Assembly: GCA_030672365.1 (NCBI GenBank)
Contig: DAOVGM010000046.1
Coordinates: 1 to 52,457 of the forward strand
Length of the DNA stretch: 52,457 bases
Direction of reading: 5' to 3'
Origin: Methanomassiliicoccales archaeon
Lineage (GTDB): Archaea; Thermoplasmatota; Thermoplasmata; SG8-5; JAGLSY01
Below the pieces are notes generated by a model. The model saw only the letters and a program-made list of their open reading frames with translations. It was not told the DNA's origin and ran no database searches. Below, piece by piece: positions 10,363 through 41,171 of this stretch (within the stretch, counting starts at the first letter, position 1; each line of letters opens with the position of its first letter). A program made the position numbers and the translations under genes.

Positions 10363-10514
10363 AACACTCACACAAGGTTCATTCCCTGAGTTCACTAAGA
10401 CAATAAAAGACTATCGGTATGCGAGATATTCTTCTATTTCCTTCTCCATTACCCATCCTGCCCCCGGGTCTTAATATCATTTTCGATGGAAATCCCGGAA
10501 GTGCCCAACAAAAC

Positions 10515-17020: not shown

Positions 17021-19660
17021 CTACTTCCTCACCTTGAACGTCTTCATGAACTGCTCGGCAGAATCGATGTACTCTGACCGGATAGAGGACTCGACCAGTG
17101 CCAGCGCCTTGATGAGATGCTCTTTCTCCACCTTTTTGTCGTGGTCTCTGTTCCCGACCACCGCCATCAACTTCGCCTCGTCGACGATGGCCTCGATGTC
17201 GTTCGCCGAGTGGCCGTCGGTCTGATCGGCCAGCTGGTCCAGGAGGTCTGCATCGACATCCTCGTTTCGCGGGATGTCGGTCAGGTAGAGCTGGAAGAGC
17301 ATCCTGCGCGCTTCCAGGTCCGGCGGAGGCACATAGAACATCTTGTCGAACCTGCCCGGTCTCAGCATTACCGGATGAAGGCTGGCAGGGTCGTTCGTCG
17401 TAACTGCCACGAGCACGTGCTCCTTCGCCTCGAGGTTGTCTATCTCGTTGAGTATCTGGCTGATGGCCTTCCCTGCCTCCTGGCTCTCGATTGCGGTGCG
17501 TGAGCCGATGACATCGATGTCCTCGATTAGCAGGATAGATGGAGTATTCTCCCTGGCCCTGTAAAACACATCTCTGACAGGAAGTGAGCCGGTTGATGCG
17601 GTTCCGACGAATTCGGTCGCGGAAATCGTCTGCATCGGGATCTTGAGGTCCGTGGCAGCCGCGTGAAGGATATTGGACTTGCCGCAGCCGGGCGGTCCGA
17701 AGAGAAGGACACCGCGGCCTGTTTTCAGCTTGAAATCCGAAAGAACGTCCGGCTCCTTCACGAGGATCTCGATGTAGCCCATGATGACGCTCTTGACTCT
17801 GTCCAGGTGAACGAGTTCGTCCCAACTCACGACCCACTCGTCCTTGTCGCGCTTCTTGTGGTGCATTTTTCTTTCGAAATCGAGCTTGAGCATTTCGTAC
17901 TCCTTCAGCATGGCCAGTGATATGCTCGGCTTGACCGCCGCGGCGATTTTGAACAGGTCGTCGTTGGTAATTTCGGAATCTTTTCCGGACTTCATCGCCC
18001 TCTTCATGGCCAGCACGGCGGCTTCCTTGGCGACGTTCGCCAGGTCCGCGCCGGAAAACCTGTCCAACTGGGCGGCGACCGTTTCCAGTCCCAGGTTGTC
18101 GGCCAGAGGTCTGTTCCTGAGGTGAACTTTCAGGATATCGACGCGCTCCCGCACGTCCGGCGGCGGCACGTAGATTATCTTGTCAAACCTGCCCGGTCTC
18201 AGAAGGGCGGGGTCTATCAACTCCGGTTTGTTCGTCGTTCCCACCAAGATTATTCCGGCGGCGCTGTCCATTCCATCGAGTTCGGCCAGCATGATACTGA
18301 GAAGCCTGGGCGTCACGTCGTCGCCCGCGTAAAGGTCGCGGTGCTTCGCCATCGCTTCCAGGTCGTCGAAGAAGATGATGCTCGGCCTGCGCTCCTTCGC
18401 CGTTTCGAAGAGCTCGGACAGCTTGGTCTCGGACTCGCCGTACCACTTGGACATGATGTCGGAACATTTGACTGTCACCATTTCCACTTTTAATTCGTTA
18501 GCCAGCGCCTTCATGAGCAGTGTCTTGCCACAGCCAGGCGGTCCGAAGAGAAGAATTCCGTGCGGTGCTTCGACGCCGTACTTGTCAGAAATCTCGCTGG
18601 CCAGCAGCGGTATCATAATCGATTCTTTAATGTCCTCCTTGACGTCGTCCAATCCGCCAATCAATTGAAAACTGGACTCGCCCAGGCTGTCCATCTGCGA
18701 GATCCGCGTGCCGATACCCCTCTCCATCTCCAGGTTCTTGAAGTAGGTGAAGAAGAACTCGTTGGCCGCGCGGCCTACCAAAATCGAGGAAATAACAATC
18801 GGGATGATGAGAAGTCCCGTAACGATGCCCTCCGCGGTCGGCGTGAGCAACAGAAACAGCGGAATGAAATACGAGCCAGCAAAGATTCCCGCAGGAATCA
18901 ATGACTGCTCGAATCTGAATTTAAGCGATTTATTCTCCCGATTAAAGAATAGGTAGACGAAGTAAACGGCCAGGCCCCACAGGATTATCTGCATCAGGGG
19001 GGCGACATGAAGCCCCAGGTTGTTGACGATGACGTCACCCATCACTGTCAGGTCAGCACCGGTCATCTCTCCCAGCGCGCTGCCCAGGTGTCCGGGGTTG
19101 AACCAGGTCAATGCCGGCTTGTAGAATATCATGAAGCTCGTTTCGTGCACAGGGCCGACGAACATGCCGGCAACCGTAAGGTTGCCACATGTCACCATGA
19201 ACGTGAGGAATACGCCCGACACAACCACGACCGACAGCGAAAGCAGGAGCGGAAGCATGCTGGCCGATATGACGGGAACGATCATCGAAAGACCGAATCT
19301 GGACAAGAAGATCGTTATAAAGACGAGGTAGCCCACCTTCCATTCGAAGAGCGATATCATGAGGATGACGAGCGAGAACAGCATCATGAAGAGGCCGAAC
19401 TCGGGCGTTTGATAACCCGCCGCTCCGATGACGAAGATGCTGAGCAACACCATGGCCAGATACGGAAATCTATATGCCACGATTGCGATGATGAACGCGA
19501 TCGTGATGGCCATCCAGATAGGGTAGAAAGGTATCCATGTAGAGCCCAGAAGCGCGAGAATGAAGAACAAAAGCACAATCACAAGCTTCGGCTCGCGGGA
19601 CTCCTGCGCGACCATCTGGCTCATGGTTTTCGGCATGACCTTCCGCATGAGGTCATTCAT
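17021..19660 (-). CDS. Polytopic-membrane-anchored double AAA+ ATPase (classic-clade, CDC48/FtsH-like modules)
   Basis: The N-terminal ~300 aa carries about 9 hydrophobic helices. D1 has GPPGCGKT, IIFFDDLE and PALLRPGRFD. D2 has GPPGCGKS, ILLIEDID and PVMLRPGRFD. ATG 19660 overlaps the upstream stop (ATGAATGA). Confidence 0.85.
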   Translation of the reverse strand: MNDLMRKVMPKTMSQMVAQESREPKLVIVLLFFILALLGSTWIPFYPIWMAITIAFIIAIVAYRFPYLAMVLLSIFVIGAAGYQTPEFGLFMMLFSLVILMISLFEWKVGYLVFITIFLSRFGLSMIVPVISASMLPLLLSLSVVVVSGVFLTFMVTCGNLTVAGMFVGPVHETSFMIFYKPALTWFNPGHLGSALGEMTGADLTVMGDVIVNNLGLHVAPLMQIILWGLAVYFVYLFFNRENKSLKFRFEQSLIPAGIFAGSYFIPLFLLLTPTAEGIVTGLLIIPIVISSILVGRAANEFFFTYFKNLEMERGIGTRISQMDSLGESSFQLIGGLDDVKEDIKESIMIPLLASEISDKYGVEAPHGILLFGPPGCGKTLLMKALANELKVEMVTVKCSDIMSKWYGESETKLSELFETAKERRPSIIFFDDLEAMAKHRDLYAGDDVTPRLLSIMLAELDGMDSAAGIILVGTTNKPELIDPALLRPGRFDKIIYVPPPDVRERVDILKVHLRNRPLADNLGLETVAAQLDRFSGADLANVAKEAAVLAMKRAMKSGKDSEITNDDLFKIAAAVKPSISLAMLKEYEMLKLDFERKMHHKKRDKDEWVVSWDELVHLDRVKSVIMGYIEILVKEPDVLSDFKLKTGRGVLLFGPPGCGKSNILHAAATDLKIPMQTISATEFVGTASTGSLPVRDVFYRARENTPSILLIEDIDVIGSRTAIESQEAGKAISQILNEIDNLEAKEHVLVAVTTNDPASLHPVMLRPGRFDKMFYVPPPDLEARRMLFQLYLTDIPRNEDVDADLLDQLADQTDGHSANDIEAIVDEAKLMAVVGNRDHDKKVEKEHLIKALALVESSIRSEYIDSAEQFMKTFKVRK

Positions 19661-20822
19661 TCTTTCCCACCTCCTTCTTCGAGTCCTCGATTGCTTTCTT
19701 CTTCATCGATTCGTCTGCAGAACGTCTCTTTACGAGCCGCCTGGTGTCCTTCGGCGGTTCGGGAACTTCCTCAGCCTCCGGAGTATCTTTCGTTTCCGGC
19801 CCGGAGGATGCCCCGGCCTCCGGAATGACTGGCTTGCCCGAGGTAATGGATTCAACCATGTCAGGGCTCAGGATGAGCTCGTCCTTCCTCTCCTCCCTCT
19901 GTCTTTCCTCGTTCAGAACGTATGCGAACGCCGGTATGGCCAGCGCACTAATGACTATCATCGAGACCAGTATCGCCGTATCGGGATACCATTTCGAGTT
20001 GTCCCTGACCCCTTCCTCGTCGCGCGTGTAATCGAAAGGATACTTGAACTGGACTATGCCGGCAAGGCTGTAATCGACGCTCTCGGACTTCGTCAGGCTG
20101 CTGTATTCATCCCAGGCGATGACCCAGAATGAGATGTTCGTACCCGCGGCGTGAAAGTTGCCGGGAATCTCGCGCTCCATTGCCGTCAGATTAATCCTGT
20201 CAAAGGTCCAGCCGCCGGATTCCGTTATCCCGTTGCTGGGTGTGTACAAGAAATAAAGGTTTGCGCCCTCGATGGGCACTCCCTCTATTGATTCTATCGC
20301 AACGGTCATCGGCTCCGTCGCATTGGGAACGGTCGGCTCCCAGTTCATGCGGATGTTCTCCTCGAAATCGTCGTGCACCCAGCCGCCGGTCCTCTCCTCG
20401 CCCACAACTGTCAATACGACGTCAGGCGAAAGCATGGGCACGTTGTTGTAGTCCAGCACGTTCAGGTAGAACTTCACGACCGTGCCGTTATACATGTAGG
20501 GCCCGATGCTCGTCCTCATGACAGTCTCGTTGATACGCTGGAACGTCCGTCCCCCTGTGGAAATCGCACCGCCGGGATAAGTGATCTCGATTTCAGCATA
20601 CGCGATTTGAATAGTGACATCTGGCTCCCTCGAGGTAACTGTGATGACAATCGGCTCGGAAGGTTTCGGCACGACAGGGCTGTAATCGAGCTCGATGTTG
20701 TCCTCGAAATCGGAGTGCTGCCATCCGATGGAGGTCTGCTGGCCCAAACCGAAAAAACAAAACAAGGGCATCGAGAGCATGACAACGATGAAAGCGATTG
20801 TGAACACTCTGGCTGTCTTCAT
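19653..20822 (-). CDS. Type I membrane protein with signal peptide, two tandem ~115-aa extracellular repeats, TM and acidic/basic cytoplasmic tail
   Basis: I prefer ATG 20822 (MKTARVFTIAFIVVMLSMPLFCFFGLG, a signal peptide). The repeats begin WQHSDFEDNIELDYSPVVPKPSEPIVITV and WVHDDFEENIRMNWEPTVPNATEPMTVAI. The TM is TAILVSMIVISALAIPAFAYVL. Confidence 0.65.
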   Translation of the reverse strand: MKTARVFTIAFIVVMLSMPLFCFFGLGQQTSIGWQHSDFEDNIELDYSPVVPKPSEPIVITVTSREPDVTIQIAYAEIEITYPGGAISTGGRTFQRINETVMRTSIGPYMYNGTVVKFYLNVLDYNNVPMLSPDVVLTVVGEERTGGWVHDDFEENIRMNWEPTVPNATEPMTVAIESIEGVPIEGANLYFLYTPSNGITESGGWTFDRINLTAMEREIPGNFHAAGTNISFWVIAWDEYSSLTKSESVDYSLAGIVQFKYPFDYTRDEEGVRDNSKWYPDTAILVSMIVISALAIPAFAYVLNEERQREERKDELILSPDMVESITSGKPVIPEAGASSGPETKDTPEAEEVPEPPKDTRRLVKRRSADESMKKKAIEDSKKEVGKNE

Positions 20823-20830
20823 TTGAAACC

Positions 20831-22135
20831 TCACGTGCTTACCTTGATGGCCTGTCTGATGGCGACCTTCGGTTTAACTCTTGTCCTTATTCTGTCTCCC
20901 AATGCCAGTCCCGCGAAACCTGCGAAGAGGTATTGGGCGGGAATCGCCGTGGCCAGCGGGATGCTGGGCGGCGGAGGCGGCGGAGGCGGTGGCGGAGGCG
21001 GCAGTGTCGGTGCCGGCGTCGGCATGCTGGACGGCGCCATCGGTAACGGCGGGTCCAACGGGGCCGGGGGCGCCTGGACAAACCTGTTCCCCAGGAAAAT
21101 CGAAGCCATCTCGAACATCTCGCCTGTTTGGTCCTGTGGCAAGTACGAGAACAACTCAACGGTTCCCTTACCGAATCTGAAATAAGATGCAAACAGGATC
21201 TGACAGTCTGACTCGGATGCGGTCAGCATGACCTTCATGCTCGAGGTGGCCGGCGTCGATGCCACGACCTCACTGCCCTCAACAACTATCTGACTCGAAC
21301 CATAATACTGTGAAAGCGATTCCCCGACATTCGTGAAATTGGCAGTGTAGCTGTCAGACCTCGGAACGTGCGTGCTGACCATACCGGGGAACACCGCTTT
21401 CACATCTTTAATTGCCTTTCCAATGAATATCACATTCCGCCCGCTGGCTACCGCGGTTTTGATGGCAGCCTTCAACCCATAATACTTGTACATTTCACCG
21501 TTGGTACCCGGGTCTTCAAAGATTATCAGGTCATTATCCAAAATAGGAGATGGGTCCCAGTCTAAATGGTATATTTGTTTCGTCGTATGTGGTATATCCA
21601 TCCTATCCAGCAAAACCTTCGAAAGACTTCTCTGCTCGTAAGCTTCTGGCTTAGCAACAATCAAAACTTTCGTTGGCTCCTCGATTTTATAAACCCTGTT
21701 CCACATGAACGTGGCACTGAGAGTATGAATGGTTACTTCGGTGAAATGTGCGCTCACGTCATTCACCACGGTTTCGTTATAGCCAGTAAGAATGATCGGG
21801 CCGCCATAGTAATACACCCCTTCCGGATGAACATCGGTCTGCATGAAGGCGTTGCCGTCCATATCCTCCGATTCGATGAGTCGATAGCAGGTCGTTTCAT
21901 TTCTCAGAAGCGCGTGCATGAATCCAAACACGAGAAGCCTGTCGTTCTGTTTGTCGTCCATAGGAAGCACCAAATCGCCGGGATTAAAGGGCAGGGACTC
22001 ATATCTCTCCTGGGCAGCCACGATTGCCTGGACGTTACTCGGCATGGCTGATAGAACGAGAACTAAGACCAGCAGAACGAGCCCGAAGCAGGAGTAAAAT
22101 CTCCCGATTCTTGTGACTCCCCTCTTTCGAAACAT
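20831..22135 (-). CDS. Secreted protein with Pro-rich stalk (12 consecutive Pro) and short C-terminal hydrophobic anchor
   Basis: I prefer ATG 22135 (MFRKRGVTRIGRFYSCFGLVLLVLVLVLSAMPSNVQA, a signal peptide). The C-terminus reads APPAPLDPPLPMAPSSMPTPAPTLPPPPPPPPPPPPSIP...YLFAGFAGLALGDRIRTRVK. Confidence 0.65.
   Translation of the reverse strand: MFRKRGVTRIGRFYSCFGLVLLVLVLVLSAMPSNVQAIVAAQERYESLPFNPGDLVLPMDDKQNDRLLVFGFMHALLRNETTCYRLIESEDMDGNAFMQTDVHPEGVYYYGGPIILTGYNETVVNDVSAHFTEVTIHTLSATFMWNRVYKIEEPTKVLIVAKPEAYEQRSLSKVLLDRMDIPHTTKQIYHLDWDPSPILDNDLIIFEDPGTNGEMYKYYGLKAAIKTAVASGRNVIFIGKAIKDVKAVFPGMVSTHVPRSDSYTANFTNVGESLSQYYGSSQIVVEGSEVVASTPATSSMKVMLTASESDCQILFASYFRFGKGTVELFSYLPQDQTGEMFEMASIFLGNRFVQAPPAPLDPPLPMAPSSMPTPAPTLPPPPPPPPPPPPSIPLATAIPAQYLFAGFAGLALGDRIRTRVKPKVAIRQAIKVST
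20966..21001 (-). repeat. (CGG CGG AGG)-type 9-nt microsatellite encoding Pro12
   Basis: The plus strand reads gggcggcggaggcggcggaggcggtggcggaggcgg. Its reverse complement encodes 12 CCN codons. Confidence 0.85.
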
Positions 22136-22277
22136 TTCTTTTGCTCCTGGCCAATAATTATAAGACCCCTTATATATCATTTTCCCAACAAAATAGTAAC
22201 AATAAATATATTTACCTTGAACTGTATATGTGGACGATACCAACACGAGGGGTGAGTGAACGCCTATAGATATTGGC
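22136..22277. promoter_or_regulatory. AT-rich divergent promoter region
   Basis: There are several TATA-like boxes: cttatatatca at about 22168-22178 for the minus operon, and aataaatatattta at about 22200-22214 for the plus gene. Confidence 0.35.
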
Positions 22278-23969
22278 TTGAACTATCTTATTTACGAGGA
22301 GAGGACAGACGAGACCTTCAAATTATTCGACGAAGTAGTCAAATCTGGAGTGCCTGGCCTCTGCATTACGACGGTATATCCCAAGAAGCTGAAAAAAATG
22401 TACGGCCTGGACGAAAAGGCGAAGATTTACTGGCTGTCGGATTCCAGCAACGAGCCAGACACGTTAGTGCCCACTAGACTCGACTTCGAAATCACGAGGG
22501 TCATAAACAAGTTCATTAAGGACAATGAAGAATCGATTCTCCTCCTCGACGGATTCGCTTATCTCACGCTCGAGAACGAGTATGACAAGGTTCGGAAATT
22601 TGTCAAGCGAACGAATGACCTGGCTTCCGTGAATAATGGCACAATTATTGTCGTGGTGAACCCGCAGTCATTCAACAAGGAAACCGTTACGACGCTCTCG
22701 CGTGATTTCGACAAGGTTGGTGATGTCGGCGACTTTTCAGGGAAGCCGGCGGCGCAACCGCAACCCGCGGCGCCGCAGCCAGCTACCCCGCAACCGATGG
22801 CAGCCCCCCAGACACCCACCTCGCCGCATGACCTCAGAATCGACGCAGGCGTCGACGAACTGGTGGGCCCCCCTGTAGTGGAAGAAGAACCCGAGGATGA
22901 CCTGCCGGACCTTGAAATCGAGGATATATATCTCATTCATCGAAGCACCGGCACCCTTATTCAAAGAAGGACATGGCGTGACCAGGACCTAATAGACCCC
23001 GACCTCGTGGGCGGTATGTTCCAGGCTATCCTGGACTTCATCAACAACTCGTTCGCCGCTGGCGAGGTATCAGACTTCAGCAGAATCGACGTCAAAGGAT
23101 ATATCATTCTCATTGCGGACGGCGATTTCGTATCTGTGGCTCTTGTTTTCTCCGGCAAGGTCGAAGAGTACATCAACAAGGCCATGAAGGATATCAAAAA
23201 GGCACTCAAGTCCAACATCGGCGATGTCGAGGTCAGCTACAAGAACATCCTCGCGGAATACGACGGGGACGTGAGCAAACTTCGCGGCACCAGAAAGAAC
23301 CTGGACTCCCTGTCAATGGACATCAACGCCGCCCTTGAAGAACATCTCAAGGGCAGAATTAGGAAGAGAAAATTATCACAGATGGAAAAGAAACAGGTCA
23401 GCGATAAGTTCTCCCAGGCCGTGAGTATGGGCCGTCAGAAGAAATTCGATGAAGCCATTAAACTTTATGACTCAGCTTTGGGCATAGACCCGACCCACAC
23501 CGAATCCCTGTTCAACAAAGGTGTTATTTTACAGATACTGGGCAGAATCGACAACGCACTGGAATGCTATGATACGGTCATTCAAATCAACCCAAATGAT
23601 AGTGAGGTCTGGGGAAACCGCGGAATAGCCCTCAGGTCAATCGGCCAGGTCGACGAGGCAATCGATTCATACGACCAGGGCCTTCAGATAAATCCCGGCG
23701 ATTCCAGTCTGTGGAGCAACAGGGGCATCGCGCTCAGAAGCGTTGGGAGGATCAAGGAGGCGATAGAGTCTTATGACAACGCACTTGAAATCAATCCGCG
23801 GGACGCCGGCGTTTGGAGCAATAAAGGGGTAGTACTAGGAAGCATGGGTCTTATGAAAGAGGCAATCGAGTGCTACGACAAGGCGCTTTCCATCGACCCG
23901 GGCAGACGACTAGCTTCGAAGAACAGAGAAATTGCCATCAAGGAGATCGAAAGGAGGGGACTGACATAG
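22278..23969 (+). CDS. DUF835 domain - roadblock/longin-like module - TPR protein
   Basis: The start is TTG; there is no in-frame ATG before residue 40. The DUF835 pattern is YLIYEE..GLCITTVYPKKL..IYWLS..ILLLDGFAYL..IIVVVNP. A Pro/Ala/Gln linker follows. The roadblock-like module is IYLIHRSTGTLI..DPDLVGGMFQAILDFINNSF..GYIILIADGDFVSVALVFSG. Then come 34-aa TPRs (INPNDSEVWGNRGIAL etc.). Confidence 0.8.
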   Translation: MNYLIYEERTDETFKLFDEVVKSGVPGLCITTVYPKKLKKMYGLDEKAKIYWLSDSSNEPDTLVPTRLDFEITRVINKFIKDNEESILLLDGFAYLTLENEYDKVRKFVKRTNDLASVNNGTIIVVVNPQSFNKETVTTLSRDFDKVGDVGDFSGKPAAQPQPAAPQPATPQPMAAPQTPTSPHDLRIDAGVDELVGPPVVEEEPEDDLPDLEIEDIYLIHRSTGTLIQRRTWRDQDLIDPDLVGGMFQAILDFINNSFAAGEVSDFSRIDVKGYIILIADGDFVSVALVFSGKVEEYINKAMKDIKKALKSNIGDVEVSYKNILAEYDGDVSKLRGTRKNLDSLSMDINAALEEHLKGRIRKRKLSQMEKKQVSDKFSQAVSMGRQKKFDEAIKLYDSALGIDPTHTESLFNKGVILQILGRIDNALECYDTVIQINPNDSEVWGNRGIALRSIGQVDEAIDSYDQGLQINPGDSSLWSNRGIALRSVGRIKEAIESYDNALEINPRDAGVWSNKGVVLGSMGLMKEAIECYDKALSIDPGRRLASKNREIAIKEIERRGLT

Positions 23970-23979
23970 GTGATGTCAC

Positions 23980-25302
23980 ATGATTGAGAAGGGGAAGAAT
24001 CATTTGATTTTTGAGTCCAGCACGAATTACACGATGGAAATGTTTACCGAATTCGACAAACACGGGACACCGTGCATCATGGTCACGACAAATCTGCCGA
24101 AGAAGATAAAAAAGGAATTCAATCTCAAACAGGTTGAATTTATCTGGCTCACAGAAGCGGACGACCCGAAGGCCCTGAAAGGACCCATAACCGATGAGCT
24201 ACGGGATTTTGTCAGGAACAACAAAGGCTCGGTCATTTTTATCGATGAAGTCGAGTACTTGATTCTCGAGAACGGCTATGAAGTCGTCGAGGAGTTTTTG
24301 GTGGGATTGGGGAATATAACTCATGAGTTCGGAGGAACACTCATAGTTCCGCTCGACCCCAATTCGATTACCGAAGAGATTTCAAAAGCCCTATCCAAGA
24401 AGTTTGACCAGATAAAGGATGTGAGGAACATTATGCTAACAGGGAACAAGGTAGAATGCCCGGAGTGCGGGGCGATGTGGCATACCAACATCCCAGTCTG
24501 CGACATCTGCGGTTATGAATTCAAGGCCGACAGGGTAAAACCGTCGCTGGCTTCGGAGGAGAAGAAGATCCCGCGTATCGAGGCGAAGATATCCGGTAAA
24601 CTTCGCTCCGGGATGCCCGTGCCCGAACCAATGCCAGAACCAATACCAGAATCAATGCCTGAACCGGTACGAGAACCGGAGCCGGAACGCGAACCCGTGG
24701 ACAAACCCGCAGCGTACGACCATGCCGTCAGACCGCAGGACGACTCCTGGTTTAATAGAGGCGTCGCCCTTGAAAAAATGGGCAAGAGCGAGCAGGCGAT
24801 CGAGTGCTTCGACAAGGCGCTGGATGAGAACCCGAATGACTCCTGGGCCTGGTTTAACAAGGGCGTGTCATTGCACCGTCTTGGTTTGCTGGGCGAGGCC
24901 CTTTTCTGTTATGATAAAGCTCTGACCTACAACCCGAACGACTCGGACCTGATGTCCAACAAGGGCATTCTTCTCAGAACGCTGGGCAAGACCGACGAGG
25001 CACTGGAATGCTACGAACGCGCCCTCGAGCTGAGCCCGCACGACCCCGGTATCTGGTCAAATCTGGGAGTCACATATCGTGTTCTGGGCATGGTCGACAA
25101 GGCTTTGGAGGCTTACAATAAAGCCCTGGAGATCGACAGCCAGGACGTAGGTGTCTGGCTGAATAAAGCGGCGGCACTGCAGTCCGAGGGAAGATTCGAT
25201 GAAGCCATCCAGTGCTATGAATCCATACTCAAGATCAATCCATATCATCCGGTCGCATTGCGAAACAAGGAATTCGCAATGGGGCGGTCGCTTCGCAGCT
25301 AA
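23980..25302 (+). CDS. DUF835 domain - zinc ribbon - TPR protein
   Basis: The DUF835 pattern is HLIFES..PCIMVTTNLPKK..FIWLTE..VIFIDEVEYL..LIVPLDP. CPECG..CDICG is a zinc ribbon. The linker is Pro/Glu-rich (PVPEPMPEPIPESMPEPVREPEPEREP). Five to six 34-aa TPRs follow. Confidence 0.8.
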   Translation: MIEKGKNHLIFESSTNYTMEMFTEFDKHGTPCIMVTTNLPKKIKKEFNLKQVEFIWLTEADDPKALKGPITDELRDFVRNNKGSVIFIDEVEYLILENGYEVVEEFLVGLGNITHEFGGTLIVPLDPNSITEEISKALSKKFDQIKDVRNIMLTGNKVECPECGAMWHTNIPVCDICGYEFKADRVKPSLASEEKKIPRIEAKISGKLRSGMPVPEPMPEPIPESMPEPVREPEPEREPVDKPAAYDHAVRPQDDSWFNRGVALEKMGKSEQAIECFDKALDENPNDSWAWFNKGVSLHRLGLLGEALFCYDKALTYNPNDSDLMSNKGILLRTLGKTDEALECYERALELSPHDPGIWSNLGVTYRVLGMVDKALEAYNKALEIDSQDVGVWLNKAAALQSEGRFDEAIQCYESILKINPYHPVALRNKEFAMGRSLRS

Positions 25303-25917: not shown

Positions 25918-26009
25918 AACCGGCGGATTGGGGATTCAAATAAAAGGTTTTCCCCCCCATCTTTTATACTTAAACTTCCATTATGATACTGAATAAATAT
26001 CTGGAGGGC

Positions 26010-26720
26010 ATGGGAATGGTCGAGAAAATTAAGACTTATATCGAGGGTTTTGACGAGATTTTAGGCGGCGGTATACCTACTGGCCACGTAGTATTGGTAT
26101 GCGGCACCCCGGGCACAATGAAGACATCGCTCACGTTCAGCATGATGTACGAGAACGCCCGTCGGGAGGGTCGTCGAGGCCTCTACATTTCCCTCGAGGA
26201 AGGGTATGAAGGTCTCAAGGGGGCAATGGAAGACCTCGGGATGACTGGCATCGACGAGTTGGAAGTATACATGGTGGACGTCGGAAAGATCCGCATAACC
26301 CACAAGGAAGAGGAGCACGGCCGCAACTGGCTCCAGATTATCGAGAAGTACATCAGGAAGAGGGTTCAGGAGGACGAGTTCGACATTCTGGTAATCGATT
26401 CGCTGGCTGCCCTTTATTCACTGACCGAATTGAAGCATCCCAGGGTCGAGTTGTTCCATTTTGTCCGATTTCTGAAAGAGCTGAAATCTACTGTAGTTCT
26501 CATTTCGGAGATAAGCCATGGCAGTGTCCAGATGGTCGCCAATGACGAGGATTTTCTTGTCGATGGAATTCTGTATCTCAAGCTGCACGAAGTCGGGGAG
26601 GCCGATATACAATTGAGGATATCATGCGTCAAGATGAGGCGGACCCAACACGACAGGGGCTGGCTCAGGCTGATACACAGGGTCGACAAGTTTGTGGCTC
26701 ATCCAGTCATCTCAGAATAA
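26010..26720 (+). CDS. KaiC-like / RecA-superfamily single-domain ATPase, paralog 2, deviant Walker A
   Basis: GGAGG lies 4 nt before ATG 26010. GFDEILGGGIPTGHVVLVCGTPGTMKTS carries the deviant Walker A. ILVIDSLAAL is the Walker B. It is collinear with 9667..10362. Confidence 0.8.
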   Translation: MGMVEKIKTYIEGFDEILGGGIPTGHVVLVCGTPGTMKTSLTFSMMYENARREGRRGLYISLEEGYEGLKGAMEDLGMTGIDELEVYMVDVGKIRITHKEEEHGRNWLQIIEKYIRKRVQEDEFDILVIDSLAALYSLTELKHPRVELFHFVRFLKELKSTVVLISEISHGSVQMVANDEDFLVDGILYLKLHEVGEADIQLRISCVKMRRTQHDRGWLRLIHRVDKFVAHPVISE

Positions 26721-26805: not shown

Positions 26806-27477
26806 ATGAAACAGATGAACATTACCGTCAGGGACGTATGGAAATCTTACGATGACAGACGTCAGGTTTTGCGAGGCATAAATCTGGAGATTGAACCGAA
26901 CGAGGTAATTCTCATCAAGGGACGGTCCGGAAGCGGTAAGAGCACGCTTCTGAACCTTTTGGGATGCATCGATAAGCCGTCACGCGGTGAAATATTCCTC
27001 AACGGATACAACACGAATGAACTCTCCGACAAGGAGCTGGCCAACATCCGGCTGCATAAAATCGGCATAGTTTTTCAAACCCACAATCTGATAAAAGACC
27101 TCACCGTTTTCGAGAACGTACTGCTGCCGATGAAGATCGCGAAATGGCACGACGGCGAATGGAAGGTCAGCGAGTTGTTGAAGACCTTTGACCTCAAAGA
27201 ATACGGTGACAAATATCCCGATGAAATAAGCGGCGGTGAAAGGCAGAGGGTGGCTGTTGCCAGGGCACTAGCCAACAGTCCGACGGTGCTTCTAGCCGAT
27301 GAGCCCACAGCATCACTCGACATTGATAATTGTGCGGTTGTTATGGAAGCATTCAAGAAAGCGAATAAAGAGTTTGGAGCCACGGTCGTTATCGCTTCAC
27401 ATGACCCTGCCATCGAAGACTACGTTGCTAAAAAATATTATCTGAATCGGGGAGTTTTGACGGAGGGAACAAACTGA
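26806..27477 (+). CDS. ABC transporter ATP-binding protein (MacB/LolD/FtsE-like)
   Basis: GRSGSGKSTLLN is the Walker A, ISGGERQRVAVARAL the ABC signature, and LLADEPTASLD the Walker B. Confidence 0.9.
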   Translation: MKQMNITVRDVWKSYDDRRQVLRGINLEIEPNEVILIKGRSGSGKSTLLNLLGCIDKPSRGEIFLNGYNTNELSDKELANIRLHKIGIVFQTHNLIKDLTVFENVLLPMKIAKWHDGEWKVSELLKTFDLKEYGDKYPDEISGGERQRVAVARALANSPTVLLADEPTASLDIDNCAVVMEAFKKANKEFGATVVIASHDPAIEDYVAKKYYLNRGVLTEGTN

Positions 27478-27560
27478 GTTCCAATAATCCCAAAAGTCTG
27501 TTAGAGGGCAAGGAATATCCGACAGATTTAATCATCGTATTATTATGGTCTATTGCAACA

Positions 27561-28418
27561 GTGATTTTCGTTTTTGTACTTCCAGACGGCAATATTGTGA
27601 GAATTATATTCGGCATACCTATGCTTTTGTTCATACCTGGCTATGCCCTCGTATCGGTATTATGGCCCGAGAAACGTACAAATTTAAACGAGGACATCGA
27701 CGAAAACCTAGAACGGTTTGCCCTAAGTTTTGGTTTGAGTATAGCAATAGTCTCAATAATTGGTCTGGCTCTTAATTTTACATCTGCCGGCATAAATTTG
27801 ATGACCACGGTCTTCGCAAATTTCGGCATAATCTTTCTCCTGTCATTATTCGCATTTTACAGAAGGCAGCAATTGCCGGTCGAAAGGAGATATAATATCG
27901 ACCTCACCTTTAAAACGGCCAGGATGCCGGAAGATAAAACGGAAAGAGTTTTTATTGTGGCCATTACCGTGGTTTTAATTTTATCGGGAATTGTATTGGC
28001 TTACGTTCTTGTTACGCCAGGAGTCGAGGACAAATACACGGTGATGTACATTCTGGACCACAACGGTACGGCAGTTGATTATGTCTCCGACATTACAATA
28101 AACGAGACAGCTGAAGTGATAGTCGGTTTCGAATCCCATCAATTTGAAACAACATTGTATTCGTTCTATACTGGAATAATCAGCCTCGACGGTATTGATA
28201 ATTATGTATATTGGAACAGCTGGAATCAAACCGACGATTTGACGAATGTTTCTGGTGGTGGTCAGGCAATCCAGCTGGAACACGGAGAATCTTATGAGAG
28301 AAATTTCGAGTTCAACATAAGAACGTCAGGGACGTATCAAATTATCTGGCAACTCCACACCGAAGGAACGGATAATTATTACGAGGTTCGCATAAGGGTG
28401 AACATAAATGCTGCTTAA
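27561..28418 (+). CDS. DUF1616 family membrane protein (minimal coordinates; true start probably upstream)
   Basis: IFGIPMLLFIPGYALVSVLWPEK and LERFALSFGLSIAIVSIIGLALNF are DUF1616-like. The frame is open from 27432 and encodes a further TM helix (PTDLIIVLLWSIATV) before the first canonical start, GTG 27561. Confidence 0.7.
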   Translation: MIFVFVLPDGNIVRIIFGIPMLLFIPGYALVSVLWPEKRTNLNEDIDENLERFALSFGLSIAIVSIIGLALNFTSAGINLMTTVFANFGIIFLLSLFAFYRRQQLPVERRYNIDLTFKTARMPEDKTERVFIVAITVVLILSGIVLAYVLVTPGVEDKYTVMYILDHNGTAVDYVSDITINETAEVIVGFESHQFETTLYSFYTGIISLDGIDNYVYWNSWNQTDDLTNVSGGGQAIQLEHGESYERNFEFNIRTSGTYQIIWQLHTEGTDNYYEVRIRVNINAA

Positions 28419-29709
28419 CGATGCCTTTGCCGTTCGTAAAACACACAAGTTTTTGATGAAGAGCCAATACTGGCCTCGGGAGGAACTTGAAAAATATCAA
28501 AATACGAAACTCAGAGTACTCGTACAAAATTCCTACGACAATGTACCATATTATCACGACATTTTTAAAAAACTAAACCTGAAACCAGATAATATTAAAA
28601 CAAAGGCGGATTTGCATAAACTTCCCATTCTCACAAAAGATGACTTACGCCAGCATCTGGACAAAATGCTGGCTTCCAACCTGAAAAACAAGGCGATGCC
28701 GTCCCAAACCGGGGGTTCGACAGGCGAACCTTTGAAATTCTACGTTCAGAGGGAGATGTGGACATGGGCTAACGGAGCCAGGTACAGAGGATGGAACTGG
28801 GCGGGTTACGAGTTCAGAGACAGGATGGTGGACTTATGGGGCGCCAGTTTCGAAATTGAACAACTCGAAAAAATGAGCACAAGTTTTCGTCACAAGCTCC
28901 TTCGCAGATTGACACTCAATACCTTCAGAATGTCCGATGAAGATATGGGCCAGTATGCCCGACAAATCATTGATTTCAAGCCGAAAATAATTCGTTCATT
29001 TTCGGGAGCGATGTACGTTTTCGCGAAATTCGTCAGTGAGCACGACATTAAAGGCATCGAACCCGAGTCCATTATCACCACGGCGGAGAACCTCTTCGAC
29101 TTCCAGCGCAAGAAAATCGAAGATACGTTCGGTTGCAGTGTTTATGATGGTTACGGCAGCCGAGAGACCTCGCTGATAGCCCACGAATGCGAGCATCACA
29201 GGGGGTATCACATTTCCGATGAGAACTCCATCGTCGAGTTTCTGAAAAACGATAAGCCAGTAACTTTTGGGGAAAGCGGTGAGATTATCATCACCGACCT
29301 GCACAATCTGGTGATGCCGTGGCTCAGGTATTCCATCGGTGACATGGGAACTCCCAAAGACGAAAAATGCAGCTGTGGTCGAGCCCTTTCGATGATGACC
29401 TCGATTGACGGTCGCGTTCACGATTTCATAGTCACACCGTCGGGTCAACGGTTGCCCGGTGAATTCTTCCCGCACCTTTTCAAAGACGTCAACGGCATCA
29501 GGGAATATCGCATCGTGCAGAAAAAAATCGAGGAGCTGGAAGTTGAAATTGTCAGAACCTCTGATTTCACCGATTCAGATTTCCAATACCTGCTGACGCA
29601 TTTCCATGAGTACCTGGGCGATGACATTGATATCGAGGTCAAATTTCCGAATTCAATCGACTGGCCTGAATCTGGAAAGCGCAGGTTCACGATATCGGAG
29701 GTGGCCTGA
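28408..29709 (+). CDS. Adenylate-forming ligase, PaaK / CapK / F390-synthetase family
   Basis: QTGGSTGEPLKFY is the AMP-binding motif. The length and the C-terminal RFTISE-type tail are typical of capsule CapK-like proteins. Confidence 0.8.
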   Translation: MLLNDAFAVRKTHKFLMKSQYWPREELEKYQNTKLRVLVQNSYDNVPYYHDIFKKLNLKPDNIKTKADLHKLPILTKDDLRQHLDKMLASNLKNKAMPSQTGGSTGEPLKFYVQREMWTWANGARYRGWNWAGYEFRDRMVDLWGASFEIEQLEKMSTSFRHKLLRRLTLNTFRMSDEDMGQYARQIIDFKPKIIRSFSGAMYVFAKFVSEHDIKGIEPESIITTAENLFDFQRKKIEDTFGCSVYDGYGSRETSLIAHECEHHRGYHISDENSIVEFLKNDKPVTFGESGEIIITDLHNLVMPWLRYSIGDMGTPKDEKCSCGRALSMMTSIDGRVHDFIVTPSGQRLPGEFFPHLFKDVNGIREYRIVQKKIEELEVEIVRTSDFTDSDFQYLLTHFHEYLGDDIDIEVKFPNSIDWPESGKRRFTISEVA

Positions 29710-30893
29710 TGCGGATAATGATAGTCGGCAACGTGTATTCGATTCACGTCAGAAAATGGGCAGAATATTTCACAGCCAGACACGAAGTTTATCTGGCCTA
29801 TCTCCCTAAGAATTCAATCGATGAAGTGAAAAAGTTATTCGAGAACGACAAGATCAATCTCGTGCCCCTAGGAAGCCCGACGATAACCAACGTCAAACGA
29901 ATACCCAGAAAGGTGTCGATGAGTGCCTTCGGCGGCAAGCATTATATGACACTGGGTCTCAAAGAATTAAAGGTCGCAATCGCGGAAATAAAGCCAGATT
30001 TGATTCACGCCCATTATCTGCCGGATTATGGCTGGCTGGCCTCTCAAACAGGTTTCAGACCGCTGTTTCTCTCGGCCTGGGGATTCACACTGGCCTACAA
30101 GGGCGGAGGTGAGGATAAGAAATACACCAAGCAAATGTTTGCCTCGGCAGATACGGTCTTTGCAGGAGATGAATCGGCAAAAGCCCGGCTTGTCGAATAC
30201 GGTTGCGATCCCGAGAAGATATTCATTCAGCCCTGGGGAGTTGATACAGCTAGATTCTCGCCCGATGTTAAAGTGCCCGAACTAAAAATACACCTTTTCG
30301 GCAACCAAAACTATCGTGTCGTGACACTAGTCAGGCATCTGGTCGACATCTGTGACATTTCCACTCTGGTCGAAGCAATTCCTTTAATATCAAGGGATAT
30401 CACGGATGCCAGATTCCTGATTGTCGGGGACGGTCCCGAAAAGGCGAACCTTGAAAAATTGTCGAAACGCCTAGACGTGGCAGATAAAATCGTTTTTACC
30501 GGAAATGTGCCCAATGATGAACTCCATAAATACCTGGCAGCCTCCGACCTGTATGTTGATACACCGCATCCTACAAAAGCGGGAGGAGGCATCGGGGTCG
30601 CTCTGATGGAGGCCATGAGTTCGGGGCTTCCGTGCCTTGTGGCCGAAAGACCGGGCGCCGAATATGGGGTTCGTACGGGACTCAACGGCGAAATCTTCGT
30701 GGGCGGCGATTCCGACGACCTGGCCAGGAAAGCGATCGAAATTTTGAAAGACAATCGGAAAATGGAGCTGTACGGAAAAAACAGCAGGGAATTGGCCCTT
30801 GAAATCGGCGACTTCGCGAAAAATATGAGGGATATTCTTCGTTTGTACGAGAAATATCTGAACACAACGGAAAAGTTATTTACAGAACAGTGA
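29709..30893 (+). CDS. Glycosyltransferase, GT-B fold (GT4-like)
   Basis: The N-terminus is MRIMIVGNVYS. The C-terminal region GGGIGVALMEAMSSGLPCLVAE is present. The ATG overlaps the upstream stop by 1 nt (TGATG). Confidence 0.8.
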   Translation: MRIMIVGNVYSIHVRKWAEYFTARHEVYLAYLPKNSIDEVKKLFENDKINLVPLGSPTITNVKRIPRKVSMSAFGGKHYMTLGLKELKVAIAEIKPDLIHAHYLPDYGWLASQTGFRPLFLSAWGFTLAYKGGGEDKKYTKQMFASADTVFAGDESAKARLVEYGCDPEKIFIQPWGVDTARFSPDVKVPELKIHLFGNQNYRVVTLVRHLVDICDISTLVEAIPLISRDITDARFLIVGDGPEKANLEKLSKRLDVADKIVFTGNVPNDELHKYLAASDLYVDTPHPTKAGGGIGVALMEAMSSGLPCLVAERPGAEYGVRTGLNGEIFVGGDSDDLARKAIEILKDNRKMELYGKNSRELALEIGDFAKNMRDILRLYEKYLNTTEKLFTEQ

Positions 30894-30906
30894 AATAGGG
30901 GGGTTA

Positions 30907-32034
30907 ATGAGCATCAAGATTCCGCTTCTCAGACCGTATTTTGATTCCGAAGAGATGGAGGAGATAAAAAAGGTTCTGGATTCAGGCTGGGTTTCTCAGG
31001 GTCCAGAGGTTAAGAAATTCGAGCGAATGACCTCTGAGTATCTTAACGCAAAGAACACCATCGCAGTTTCCAATTGCACATCTGCACTTCACCTTTCTCT
31101 TCTGGCTCTTGGAATCGAAAAGGGTGATGAGGTGCTAGTCGCCGATTTTACTTACCCCGCAACCGGCCATTCGGTCCTCTATTGTCAGGCGAACCCGGTC
31201 TTTGTTGACATCAAACCAGACACATACAACATGGACCCAGAGGATTTAAATTCAAAGATCACGGACAAATCTAAAACCGTGATTCCGGTACACACTTTCG
31301 GCCAGCCGGCGGACATGGATGAAATCATGAAGATAGCGTCTGAAAACAACTTAAAAGTAATTGAGGACGCGGCATGTTCTTTCGGAGCAAAATATAAAGA
31401 TAAGTTCTCTGGCACAATCGGTGATACCGGTTGCTATTCCTTTCATGCCAGGAAAGGTTTGACAACGGGCGAGGGAGGTATGATCGTTACCGAAGACGAT
31501 AGACTGGCCGCCCGAATGAGAAAGTTATCTGTTTTCGGCATCTCCGGGACCTGGGACCGTGAAAGCAGTGATAGTTTTCACGTCCCGGAATTCACCGAGG
31601 TCGGTTACAATTACAAGATGAGTGACATACTGGCTGCCGTCGGCGTTGTGCAACTTAAAAGACAGGACTTGATAATCAAACGGAAGAGAGAACTGGCAAA
31701 ACATTGGGATGATCTGTTGAATGAAATGGATGATATTCAACCGCCGGCGATATCGAAATATTCCATACACGTTTATCAAAGCTACGTGCCGATACTGGAC
31801 AGAGGATTAAACAGGAATCGGGTTATTCAGAAACTCCGGAAGAAGGGCATTCAAGCGAATATCGGGACATATGCATCCCATGTCCAACCTGTTTACGCTT
31901 CACCTAAGAATTGTCCCACTTCTGTGGACATATTCGAGAGAACGATTGCCTTGCCCATGTATTATGGCCTGGAAGAGGAAGAAATCAACGAAATGTCCGC
32001 CTTCTTACGCTCGACTATCGCGGAGGTGAGATGA
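30907..32034 (+). CDS. DegT/DnrJ/EryC1/StrS family PLP-dependent sugar aminotransferase
   Basis: IPLLRPYFDSEEMEEIKKVLDSGWVSQGPEVKKFE is the family N-terminus. YSFHARKGLTTGEGGMIV is the PLP-Lys region. Confidence 0.9.
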   Translation: MSIKIPLLRPYFDSEEMEEIKKVLDSGWVSQGPEVKKFERMTSEYLNAKNTIAVSNCTSALHLSLLALGIEKGDEVLVADFTYPATGHSVLYCQANPVFVDIKPDTYNMDPEDLNSKITDKSKTVIPVHTFGQPADMDEIMKIASENNLKVIEDAACSFGAKYKDKFSGTIGDTGCYSFHARKGLTTGEGGMIVTEDDRLAARMRKLSVFGISGTWDRESSDSFHVPEFTEVGYNYKMSDILAAVGVVQLKRQDLIIKRKRELAKHWDDLLNEMDDIQPPAISKYSIHVYQSYVPILDRGLNRNRVIQKLRKKGIQANIGTYASHVQPVYASPKNCPTSVDIFERTIALPMYYGLEEEEINEMSAFLRSTIAEVR

Positions 32035-32777
32035 TCCCAGAACCAGATTTCACTTACGGTTATTATCAGAAGCTACTTTCCAAGGCCATGACCATCGCAC
32101 CCATCACACCGTTCAGAGGGCAGCCAGAAGGACCGTGTATCATCCTGAGACATGATGTTGATTTCGACATATTCCCAGCATACGCGATGGCCCAAATTGA
32201 AAGAACCTCGGAGGTAAATTCCACTTATTTCATAATGACCACGTGCCATTTGTACAATCCATCATCGTCTGGAAACAGGGAAATGCTCAGGTCGATGTCA
32301 GACGACGGTCAAGAAATCGGCCTTCATTTCGACCCCACAGTTTATGCCGCAGAGGACGAGAATTTACTGATCGAACACGTACGCGATGAATGCCGAATTC
32401 TCGAACGCATTGTTGGCCAGGATATAAATTCAATAAGTCTTCACAACCCTTCCGTAACAGGTAAGTATCCGCTCTTTGAAGGTTATAACAACGCATATTC
32501 CCCGGAATTGTTTACAGACGAATTCTATATCAGCGATTCGTGCATGGACTTCAGACAAAAAGACCCCATGAAATTCGTCGAGAAAGCAAAGACCAAGTCA
32601 ATTCAAATGGTATTCCATCCCTTGCATTGGTTCGATACCAAATCAAATTATTTGGATTTGATATACAGGTCAATGAGAAGGCACATTGAATTTACGGACA
32701 AGGTCTTCCATATCAACTCAACATATATAGCTCACTTGGGCGGCCGAAAACTCTTGGATGAGATAAAAAGAAGGTGA
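32031..32777 (+). CDS. Polysaccharide deacetylase-like protein (WbmS-like)
   Basis: I prefer ATG 32031, which makes an ATGA overlap with the DegT stop. The ILRHDVDFDI and IGLHFD motifs are present. Confidence 0.55.
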   Translation: MIPEPDFTYGYYQKLLSKAMTIAPITPFRGQPEGPCIILRHDVDFDIFPAYAMAQIERTSEVNSTYFIMTTCHLYNPSSSGNREMLRSMSDDGQEIGLHFDPTVYAAEDENLLIEHVRDECRILERIVGQDINSISLHNPSVTGKYPLFEGYNNAYSPELFTDEFYISDSCMDFRQKDPMKFVEKAKTKSIQMVFHPLHWFDTKSNYLDLIYRSMRRHIEFTDKVFHINSTYIAHLGGRKLLDEIKRR

Positions 32778-32781
32778 ATAA

Positions 32782-33741
32782 ATGGAGAAGAAATTTACAG
32801 TGACTGAACTCTGTGCTTCATTAGATGAGTCGTATGAGGTGACCGGCCCGAAAGATACCCTAGTCACAAATCTAATGCCAATTGACAAATCTACGGAATC
32901 CTCCATAACATTCTGTAGCAATACAGATAAAGATGATGCAAAGAAGATGATATCATCTTCAAAGGCCTACGTTGTGATATGTTCTTATTCCTGCGGATTC
33001 GGAAATTCCGATTTTCAGAATAAGACCATAATCTCTGTTGAAAATCCGAGAAAAACCTTCATTAAACTGATGAAAAACCTCTTTATTGAAGAAGTCCAGT
33101 ATGAAATTTCTTCGAATGCAATAATCGAGAAAGGGGCAGAGATCCACCCAGAAGTTTTCATCGGCCCGAATACATACATCGGCGGCCAAGTAAAGATCGG
33201 CCCCCGAACCATCATTCATGCCAACGTTAGCATCTATGACGGCACGAAGATAGGAACTAATGTCGTAATTCATTCTGGCACTGTAATCGGGGCATCTGGT
33301 TTCGGATATGAAAGGGAGGACAATGGCGAATTTCTGGCATTCCCTCATATGGGTGGTGTTCTGATAGAGGATGATGTTGAAATCGGGGCTAACACATGCA
33401 TAGATAGGGGTACGCTGGGCGATACAACAATCGGCAAAGGCACTAAGATAGACAACCTGTGCCACATTGCCCACAACGTGGAAATCGGCAAGCACTCCGC
33501 AATAATCGCACTCACCCTTATTGGCGGTAGCACAAAGATAGGAGATTATTCTTGGGTAGCCCCCTGTGCTTGTGTCAGGGACGGCTTGAGAATAGGCAAA
33601 AACACAATATTAGGCATGGGGACCGTGGTTACCAAGGATGTGGAGGACAACGCTATCGTCTTGGGCATACCCGGGAAAAAGGTAAAGGATAATCCAATTC
33701 CTACTTACTTATCAAATAAAAAATCGGAGGAAATCGAATGA
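32782..33741 (+). CDS. LpxD-like hexapeptide-repeat sugar N-acyltransferase
   Basis: A non-repeat N-domain is followed by left-handed beta-helix repeats: [50 protein letters not shown] ... [16 protein letters not shown]. Confidence 0.8.
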
Positions 33742-34703: not shown

Positions 34704-34712
34704 GGTATACTA

Positions 34713-35564: not shown

Positions 35565-35579
35565 TATTGATCTGCGTGA

Positions 35580-36146: not shown

Positions 36147-36157
36147 TCGGTGATATT

Positions 36158-36456: not shown

Positions 36457-36480
36457 TTTTTCAAGGCCAAACATAAGGTT

Positions 36481-37998: not shown

Positions 37999-38069
37999 AA
38001 GATTACCCGAAGTACTTGTAATTTTTATAACCTTGTGTCATTACCGTAGCTGAAGTGTGGAGAATTTCT

Positions 38070-41152: not shown

Positions 41153-41171
41153 AATCGTTTCTGGCGGATAT

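Follow-up and report, generated by a model that had tools for sequence, protein, structure and literature searches.

The stretch of DNA analysed here (the window) comprises 52,457 nucleotides (nt) of a Methanomassiliicoccales archaeon genome (assembly GCA_030672365.1, contig DAOVGM010000046.1) and encodes, at 22278-25302 on the forward strand, two adjacent paralogous genes whose products start with a DUF835 domain and end in tetratricopeptide repeats (TPRs). The pair is conserved in Thermoplasmata, and its members have divided two accessory elements between them, i.e. gene 1 carries a module that is homologous to an insert of three STAND ATPases encoded at the left end of the window and is predicted to have a longin-like fold, while gene 2 carries a putative zinc ribbon. 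Our preferred explanation is a conserved two-gene operon encoding non-catalytic scaffolds, in which DUF835 serves as an inactivated KaiC-like (iKaiC) head and the longin-like module would dock a nucleoside triphosphatase (NTPase); we give this reading an even chance of being correct.

Architecture of the gene pair

Gene 1 (22278-23969, + strand) encodes 563 amino acids (aa) when read from a TTG codon, with the TAG stop ending at 23969. Gene 2 (23980-25302, +) follows after a spacing of 10 nt and encodes 440 aa from the ATG at 23980, which is directly preceded by a Shine-Dalgarno-like GGTGAT. Both products open with DUF835, for which the gathering score of the Pfam family (PF05763) is 33.1 bits, i.e. 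gene 1 scores 98.6 bits over profile positions 2-136 of 136 (22296-22709, +, aa 7-144) and gene 2 scores 77.2 bits (24016-24405, +, aa 13-142). In gene 1, a Pro/Ala/Gln-rich linker, recognized from its sequence (22740-22904, +, about aa 155-209), leads into the module of ~125 aa (22905-23297, +, aa ~210-340), which was identified by its homology to the STAND inserts, by an AlphaFold2 (AF2) model and by Foldseek. A helical linker and five 34-aa TPRs complete the protein (23403-23912, +, aa ~376-545; TPR_1 E 4.6e-47, five stretches).

Gene 2 lacks the module. Here, DUF835 is followed by the putative zinc ribbon CPECG-x9-CDICG (24457-24513, +, aa 160-178; CPECGAMWHTNIPVCDICG), which holds two CxxC pairs (C160, C163, C174 and C177) and matches weakly the HVO_0416 zinc finger family, then by an acidic, proline-rich (PEP)n linker (24610-24708, +, aa 211-243; GMPVPEPMPEPIPESMPEPVREPEPEREP) and again by five 34-aa TPRs (24736-25254, +, aa ~253-425; TPR_1 E 4.5e-55, five stretches). 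Since the two proteins are 32 % identical in DUF835 and 42-47 % identical in the TPR arrays, they are paralogs. An earlier note on this DNA had described two neighbouring genes, 10 nt apart, with DUF835 first and 34-aa TPRs last, and had placed a CPECG..CDICG motif and a (PEP)n linker where gene 2 would otherwise hold the module; the open reading frames (ORFs) and the Pfam DUF835 and TPR_1 matches agree with the former, and the latter is plainly seen in the sequence. We are highly confident that the parts are correctly identified.

The annotated start of gene 1 is probably slightly too short. Orthologs start with MIEKG(L/F)NYLIYE, while the in-frame codons of the window after the TGA at 22257-22259 read T-P-I-D-I-G-L-N-Y, and a Shine-Dalgarno-like GGGGTGA lies ~10 nt 5' of the ATA at 22266. 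Based on the ortholog N-termini and this element, the true start is probably the non-canonical ATA 22266 or ATT 22272, a few codons before TTG 22278.

Conservation of the pair in Thermoplasmata

A scan with one genome per species yielded 22 loci, and in 19 of them the orthologs of genes 1 and 2 are adjacent, with gaps of 3-35 nt and identities down to 47 % (gene 1) and 37 % (gene 2); at locus L004 the ortholog of gene 1 is present and the contig stops before gene 2. The closest relatives of the window are Thermoplasmata, Methanomassiliicoccales and Proteinoplasmatales metagenome-assembled genomes (MAGs). The partition of the accessory elements is strict throughout these 19 further Thermoplasmata genomes: among the orthologs of gene 1, all carry the module and none a zinc ribbon, among those of gene 2 the reverse applies, and the pattern CPxCGAxW..C..IC is kept in all 19 orthologs of gene 2. 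In a literature search, we found no description of such a split in a DUF835-TPR pair.

Conservation differs markedly between regions, as judged by mean pairwise identity over 20 sequences, i.e. the window and 19 orthologs. In gene 1, it amounts to 65 % in DUF835, 23 % in the linker (0 invariant positions), 79 % in the b1-b2-a1 part of the module (b, strand; a, helix; 24/51 positions invariant), 58 % in the rest of the module and 66 % in the TPRs; the values for gene 2 are 45 % in DUF835, 62 % in the zinc ribbon, 23 % in the linker (aa 186-252) and 66 % in the TPRs. Constraint in gene 1 is thus strongest in the module, with 79 % in b1-b2-a1 against 65 % in DUF835.

One protein of 831 aa (P0134) combines both elements in the order DUF835 - zinc ribbon - module - TPR - linker - DUF835. 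Its architecture suggests a trace of an ancestral protein with both module and zinc ribbon and, if taken as a Rosetta-stone fusion, suggests that two DUF835 heads may work together.

The DUF835 head is predicted to resemble KaiC without Walker A

An AF2 model of gene 1 aa 1-155, built from a seven-sequence alignment, reached a predicted local distance difference test (pLDDT) value of 87.6 and a predicted template modelling score (pTM) of 0.86. Compared with the PDB by Foldseek, it was closest to FlaH/ArlH (4yds, E 6.4e-6, query-normalized template modelling score 0.67), with further matches to SSO2452 and, at query-normalized scores of 0.6-0.7, to PH0284, the KaiC-like protein PH0186, KaiC CI and RecA; the NCBIfam FlaH/ArlH model reached an E of 1.5e-5 on DUF835, which falls short of the family cut-off. 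The Walker A motif GxxxxGK[ST] is absent from both DUF835 proteins, the equivalent loop reading CITTxYPxKLKK (20 sequences), and gene 1 has an LLLLDG strand at the Walker B position. Because Walker A is absent, these are not active members of the KaiC/RecA family; the predicted fold is KaiC/FlaH/RecA-like, and 'inactivated KaiC-like' is an apt description of it. The degenerate KaiC-like chassis of the earlier note is thereby upheld and is not new, as DUF835 had been labelled 'iKaiC' by Galperin et al. 2018 (PMC5847659).

The present proteins share with that family the domain scores, the P-loop-less KaiC-like fold and a Thermoplasmata lineage with DUF835 fusions. However, the published fusions are REC-DUF835 and REC-PAS-DUF835 (PMC5847659), whereas here DUF835 is N-terminal and precedes either a longin-like module or a zinc ribbon, together with TPRs, in conserved tandem paralogs. 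DUF835 and KaiC-like ATPases have been proposed as major archaeal signalling hubs (Galperin et al. 2018, PMC5847659, citing Makarova et al. 2017), and the pair offers a compact, conserved two-protein system for asking what the inactivated KaiC head does.

In a further Methanomassiliicoccales MAG (L022, 8964-10441), an ORF for a small Ras-like GTPase is directly followed by one for a V4R-DUF835 protein, an arrangement that, by gene order, links DUF835 itself to small GTPases.

The module is shared with STAND ATPases

Three consecutive genes at the left end of the window encode AAA_16-TPR STAND proteins, i.e. STAND1 (3-2750, +), which runs past the left window edge, STAND2 (2747-5791, +) and STAND3 (5758-8583, +). 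AAA_16 scores 79.8 bits in STAND2 and 79.7 bits in STAND3 (Pfam cut-off, 32.6 bits), and all three genes at 1-8583 have C-terminal arrays of the TPR_12/MalT type. The Walker A motif GEAGIGKT is found at aa 40 of STAND2 and aa 50 of STAND3, and the Walker B motif VLLFLDD at aa 261 of STAND2. The module copy of STAND2 (3044-3397, +, aa 100-217) separates these two Walker motifs and is thus an insertion inside the P-loop domain; that of STAND3 (6088-6447, +) lies 3' of Walker A. In STAND1, the ORF opens within its module (3-356, +, ORF aa 1-118; KVFAVNKAGLL...), and since the window edge cuts the gene, the Walker A region falls outside the window and is not missing from the gene.

The four modules of the window align collinearly with 16 invariant columns, and the module of gene 1 is 25-28 % identical to the three STAND inserts (pairwise BLASTP E 5e-6). 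We further compared them by means of a hidden Markov model (HMM) of 97 inserts from ~1,000-aa AAA_16-TPR proteins, comprising no window and no DUF835 sequences, with which the complete set of 511 stop-to-stop window ORFs was searched. This HMM matched gene 1 at aa ~214-339 (E 2.7e-18, HMM positions 2-120 of 122) and STAND1-3 (E 1e-52 to 8e-40; 1.8e-52 for STAND1), and none of the other ORFs among the 511. The collinearity that the earlier note had proposed between the gene 1 module and the STAND inserts is thus confirmed by profile comparison and reflects homology. Its further proposal, that module and TPRs form one cassette reused as a block, does not hold: since the TPRs of the STAND proteins are of a different type (24 % identical to those of gene 1) and start ~330 aa after the module in STAND2, and since the insert lies inside the NTPase domain, there is no single module-TPR unit.

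With Walker A, Walker B, AAA_16 and TPR_12/MalT arrays, the trio resembles known AAA_16-TPR STAND NTPases (MalT/AfsR-like), from which it differs by the ~120-aa module between Walker A and B. No account equating the domain beside Rup GTPases (see below) with the STAND insert and with the middle domain of DUF835-TPR proteins was found in the literature search. Tandem insert-bearing AAA_16-TPR STAND genes also occur in other genomes (L027, 4991-11372; L029, 4468-10724).

A large, unannotated module family

Neither a Pfam-A family (E<=1) nor an NCBIfam model matched the module region of gene 1, and Pfam placed nothing over this region in other module proteins either; Robl_LC7 (PF03259) did not match the module, and at the sequence level the module profile retrieved nothing above noise from the PDB. 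Used by itself, the gene 1 module found no matches in a word-index homology search, for which a four-sequence profile was needed; since this tool lists proteins of <=250 aa only, full-length architectures were taken from representative proteins and loci. Among 1.84 billion cluster representatives (50 % identity), the module profile matched 4,874 (E<=1e-3), of which 2,720 reached E<=1e-10, with the family signature hEEhFLIH..G.L...D.D...GML.AVQDFV+DSF...G...hLIE.G....LA.Vh.G...W.G. About 100 of the best 150 representatives were ~1,000-aa AAA_16-insert-TPR proteins with the module between Walker A and B. The same 150 included DUF835-module-TPR orthologs (P0096, P0123, P0134 and P0157) as well as membrane proteins in which CARDB or DUF11 ectodomains precede a transmembrane helix and one to three modules follow it, and bacterial proteins that combine the module with a transmembrane helix and an OmpA domain. 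In the receptor-like proteins of this family, the module thus lies directly on the inner side of the membrane.

Some architectures are unusual. Giant proteins of 1,200-2,400 aa (P0028, P0092, P0031 and P0039) consist of repeated CARDB-transmembrane helix-module units with a C-terminal DUF5915 and hold two or three modules ~505 aa apart. A zinc-finger-rich protein that is neither of STAND nor of DUF835 type (P0025; L114/L115, 634-3576) has a module 55 % identical to that of gene 1, and its gene adjoins an AbiEi/AbiEii toxin-antitoxin pair.

The predicted fold of the module is longin-like

The AF2 model of the gene 1 module, based on a 31-row alignment, has a pLDDT of 85 and a pTM of 0.78. According to DSSP, its elements follow the order b1-b2-a1-b3-b4-b5-a2-a3, with b1 at E6-14; there is no N-terminal helix, and the model ends in two or three helices (H92-113, H115-119 and H125-143). 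Nearly all of its top 50 Foldseek matches in the PDB were longin or roadblock domains (E 7e-5 to 4e-3, template modelling scores 0.4-0.63), and GAF or PAS domains were not among them. The longin matches included zeta-COP, AP sigma, Ykt6, VAMP7, Sec22b, TRAPP, SRX and Mon1-Ccz1, and the roadblock matches the Rag C-terminal domain, LAMTOR, LC7, MglC and the Asgard Rbl2 (Roadblock2); the top ones comprised CopZ1 (5mc7, E 6.7e-5), AP sigma, Ykt6, VAMP7, Sec22b (scores 0.57/0.63) and Bet5 (0.58/0.59). As modelled, the module belongs to the longin/roadblock superfold, which is a shared fold and does not by itself prove homology.

Roadblock domains typically have an N-terminal helix and the order a-b-b-a-b-b-b. 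Because the module lacks the N-terminal helix and has two C-terminal helices, its predicted order is that of longin domains (b-b-a-b-b-b-a-a). The term 'roadblock-like' of the earlier note is therefore adequate for the superfold only, as the strand order is that of longin and both the Robl_LC7 helix and a Pfam match are absent; judging from the model, 'longin-like' is more precise.

Longin and roadblock domains dock or regulate small GTPases. The module shares with longin domains the element order and the best structural matches, and the gene linkage of its family, described below, would fit a platform for small GTPases; it differs from them in that no sequence-level similarity was found and template modelling scores are moderate, and in its occurrence in bacteria and non-Asgard archaea, either inserted in the P-loop domain of STAND proteins or fused to iKaiC. 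With the Roadblock/LC7/MglB superfamily (Koonin and Aravind 2000, as cited in PMC4316618), it shares an a/b sandwich core (root mean square deviation 3.3-4.3 A over 85-110 columns) and, as for MglB-MglA and Ragulator-Rag, genomic coupling to Ras-like GTPases with the NTPase regulation this implies; it differs in lacking a Robl_LC7 match and in having two C-terminal helices in place of the N-terminal one.

Module genes recur with genes of P-loop NTPases

Three bacterial module proteins could be traced to contigs, and all three lie in the same operon, i.e. coiled-coil protein -> module-transmembrane helix-periplasmic/OmpA protein -> Ras/Arf/Roc-like GTPase -> cyclase, GGDEF-EAL protein or histidine kinase. 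A metagenome scan with the module alignment gave 80 loci, 73 of non-STAND and 7 of STAND type. A Ras-family GTPase gene is present in 32/73 non-STAND loci, and of the 59 that have >=500 nt of downstream sequence, 26 have it immediately downstream on the same strand; none was found at the STAND-type loci (0/7). Pfam Ras confirmed the module-linked GTPases (E 1e-29 to 1e-35). At one locus (L023), a Ras-like GTPase gene lies between a STAND-module gene and a gene for a 621-aa protein with an N-terminal module.

KaiC-like genes are associated with the module as well. A metagenomic contig (L100, 1-2027) encodes a DUF835 fused directly to a canonical module without TPRs, after which come the genes of a KaiC-like ATPase and of a further DUF835 protein. 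At L019 (2753-4827, -), the gene that follows a KaiC-like one, in the same orientation, encodes a coiled-coil protein of 460 aa that is rich in Lys and Glu and has a divergent module (E 5.8e-5) at its C-terminal end; this locus is 5 kb away from the DUF835 pair of that genome. Taken together, gene neighbourhoods and fusions show that the module recurs with three kinds of P-loop NTPases: small GTPases as neighbours, STAND proteins as hosts, and KaiC/iKaiC proteins as fusion partners or neighbours.

The iKaiC nature of DUF835 was known before, as were STAND-TPR proteins and the longin/roadblock superfold; the domain next to Rup GTPases had been noticed and left unassigned. Wuichet and Sogaard-Andersen 2014 (PMC4316618) describe a domain without a Pfam model ('Unc') in the neighbourhood of Group 1 Rup GTPases. 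The bacterial module operons match that neighbourhood, i.e. coiled-coil protein, unnamed domain with transmembrane helix and OmpA, Rup GTPase and an output gene (GGDEF/EAL, cyclase or histidine kinase); by contrast, PMC4316618 reports the domain in neither STAND ATPases nor DUF835 proteins. From the matching architecture, and not from the sequences of that paper, we infer that the module is the 'Unc' domain. The literature search revealed no paper assigning the module or the Rup-adjacent domain to the longin/roadblock fold.

The archaeal module-linked Ras-family GTPases (L039, L050, L063, L068, L072 and others) are ~271 aa long and share a C-terminal extension of ~100 aa (DFIVQDFCAQYGDLEKAM), for which no Pfam match was obtained. 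The idea that this extension is a Rag-like roadblock domain was dropped, as the alignment appears helical by eye and the module HMM did not match it.

Proposed mechanism and alternative explanations

In the mechanism that we propose, the paralogs have split two accessory elements, gene 1 keeping the module and gene 2 the zinc ribbon. The two iKaiC heads would associate with each other in a heteromer, and perhaps with active KaiC-like ATPases, as subunits of the KaiC family pack, and the flexible linkers would present the five-TPR arrays for the recruitment of client proteins. By analogy with longin and roadblock domains and their small GTPases, the module of gene 1 may provide a surface on which a P-loop NTPase docks or is regulated, with the zinc ribbon of gene 2 as a second, different contact; the whole may play a role in signalling. 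That the module docks onto or regulates NTPases is suggested because it sits inside STAND ATPases or beside genes of Ras-like GTPases. Taken as a whole, the chances of this mechanism fall just short of even.

It is tempting to speculate further that the module represents a prokaryote-wide longin-type family, i.e. the missing regulatory partner of Rup-type GTPases, which was co-opted in STAND ATPases and iKaiC scaffolds, a proposal that we make tentatively and hold to be less probable than the mechanism itself. To our knowledge, Rup-type GTPases have no known GTPase-activating protein, guanine nucleotide exchange factor or effector, and the module is a concrete candidate partner for them. In any case, the module is a domain that has thousands of members but no annotation, and its predicted fold and its neighbourhoods tie it to NTPase regulation; it also offers a candidate explanation of the unusual P-loop-domain insertion in a large STAND clade. 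Longin-type domains are usually discussed as a feature of Asgard archaea and eukaryotes, and the module family bears on their origin. If the module is indeed a partner of Rup GTPases, longin-type platforms would have been paired with small NTPases before Asgard archaea and eukaryotes arose, and the DUF835 pair would link archaeal KaiC-like and small-GTPase signalling.

Several observations weigh against the proposed operon of iKaiC scaffolds with an NTPase-docking module. Small GTPase genes are absent from the 52-kb window and from the 10 kb on either side of the pair in the 19 genomes that have it (L001-L020); outside the closest relatives, a KaiC-like gene is near the pair only at L019 and L021; and genes for DUF835 alone are found among unrelated housekeeping genes. 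As for the folds, the Foldseek scores of the module are moderate (template modelling scores 0.43-0.58), and its assignment comes from one AF2 model based on a 31-sequence alignment, while hhalign of DUF835 against KaiC-like proteins gave a weak match (E 0.0028, probability 11 %) that covers the Walker-B strand only; since the latter was too weak to decide, AF2 and Foldseek were used for DUF835.

A serious competitor, with a probability somewhat under even, is that nothing beyond ordinary domain shuffling lies behind the shared module, so that the DUF835 pair and the STAND trio would act in separate pathways and share the window incidentally, without forming the network that the earlier note had read as a combinatorial toolkit. 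Indeed, 13.7 kb with unrelated genes (GNAT, macro domain, Cdc48 and others) separate the two, and their linkage is not conserved, i.e. in 20 other genomes no STAND trio was found within +/-10 kb of the pair, whose neighbourhood is kept only in L001-L004; the gene 1 module is closer to that of P0025 (55 %) than to the STAND inserts of the window (25-28 %). Three further assemblies with STAND fragments show no overlap with the 22 assemblies of the pair scan. On the other hand, both families occur together again in the one other assembly in which this was seen (JAUWNU01; L020 and L027), a STAND-like module protein directly adjoins a DUF835-TPR gene at L021, and both the pair and the STAND families are typical of Thermoplasmata.

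The module could also be a sensor or signal-transducing domain in the manner of GAF, PAS or profilin-like folds, for a ligand or for conformational coupling close to the membrane, and in gene 1 it would gate TPR binding in response to a small molecule. Its frequent position directly after a transmembrane helix behind an extracellular CARDB or DUF11 domain, its very conserved polar motif D-x-D...GML-AVQDFV-DSF and a related DUF835 protein that carries the small-molecule-binding V4R domain in place of the module would fit such a role. Yet the top 50 structural matches are to longin and roadblock domains and not to GAF or PAS, and both the operon link to Ras-family GTPases (26/59 loci) and the insertion in a P-loop domain are what is expected of an NTPase partner; we consider a sensor unlikely. 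Far more improbable still is an antiviral or conflict system, with the STAND-TPR proteins as a defence of the Avs/NLR type and the DUF835-TPR pair as accessory sensors, although tandem AAA_16-TPR STAND genes and a macro-domain gene are present in the window and the P0025 module protein of another contig lies beside AbiEi/AbiEii. When the pair, the STAND and KaiC-like proteins and their neighbours were compared with PADLOC-DB 2.0, only generic TPR models matched and no defence-specific family. Moreover, its vertical conservation in Thermoplasmata and its stable architecture set the pair apart from variable defence islands, and its neighbours are housekeeping genes such as arginine decarboxylase and Cdc48.

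Other features of the window

The genes flanking the pair are common only to L001-L004, whose genomes are ~74 % identical, and comprise orf471, orf393, Cdc48, arginine decarboxylase, KaiC_b and an ABC ATPase; this neighbourhood is not kept in L005-L020. The KaiC-like ATPase KaiC_b (25983-26720, +; Pfam KaiC E 5e-40) lies two genes 3' of the pair and is a candidate active partner; its synteny with the pair is limited to L002 and L003, i.e. the closest relatives. Both this protein and a second KaiC-like ATPase (9667-10395, -) show a deviant Walker A motif, G-x-PGTMK[ST], with Met at the canonical second Gly, which is also seen in L002; the corresponding sequences are GHAGTMKS in L019 and GPAGSAKS in L100.

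Upstream of the pair, and divergently oriented from it, are two ORFs without a Pfam match (20831-22246, -, and 19653-20834, -), which are conserved only in L001-L004. The former encodes a run of 12 prolines, mirrored by a run of Gly on the other strand, and ortholog alignments suggest that it may start ~50 codons 3' of the listed GTG.

In addition to Cdc48 and the KaiC-like ATPases, the window encodes a pyruvoyl arginine decarboxylase and DUF1616. A cell-surface/glycan biosynthesis cluster occupies 26806-43144, with a G+C content of 0.43-0.49 as against 0.50-0.55 in the left half of the window, and holds genes for an ABC ATPase, DUF1616, glycosyltransferases, a DegT aminotransferase, a hexapeptide acyltransferase, epimerases and a polysaccharide biosynthesis protein of the Polysacc_synt family.

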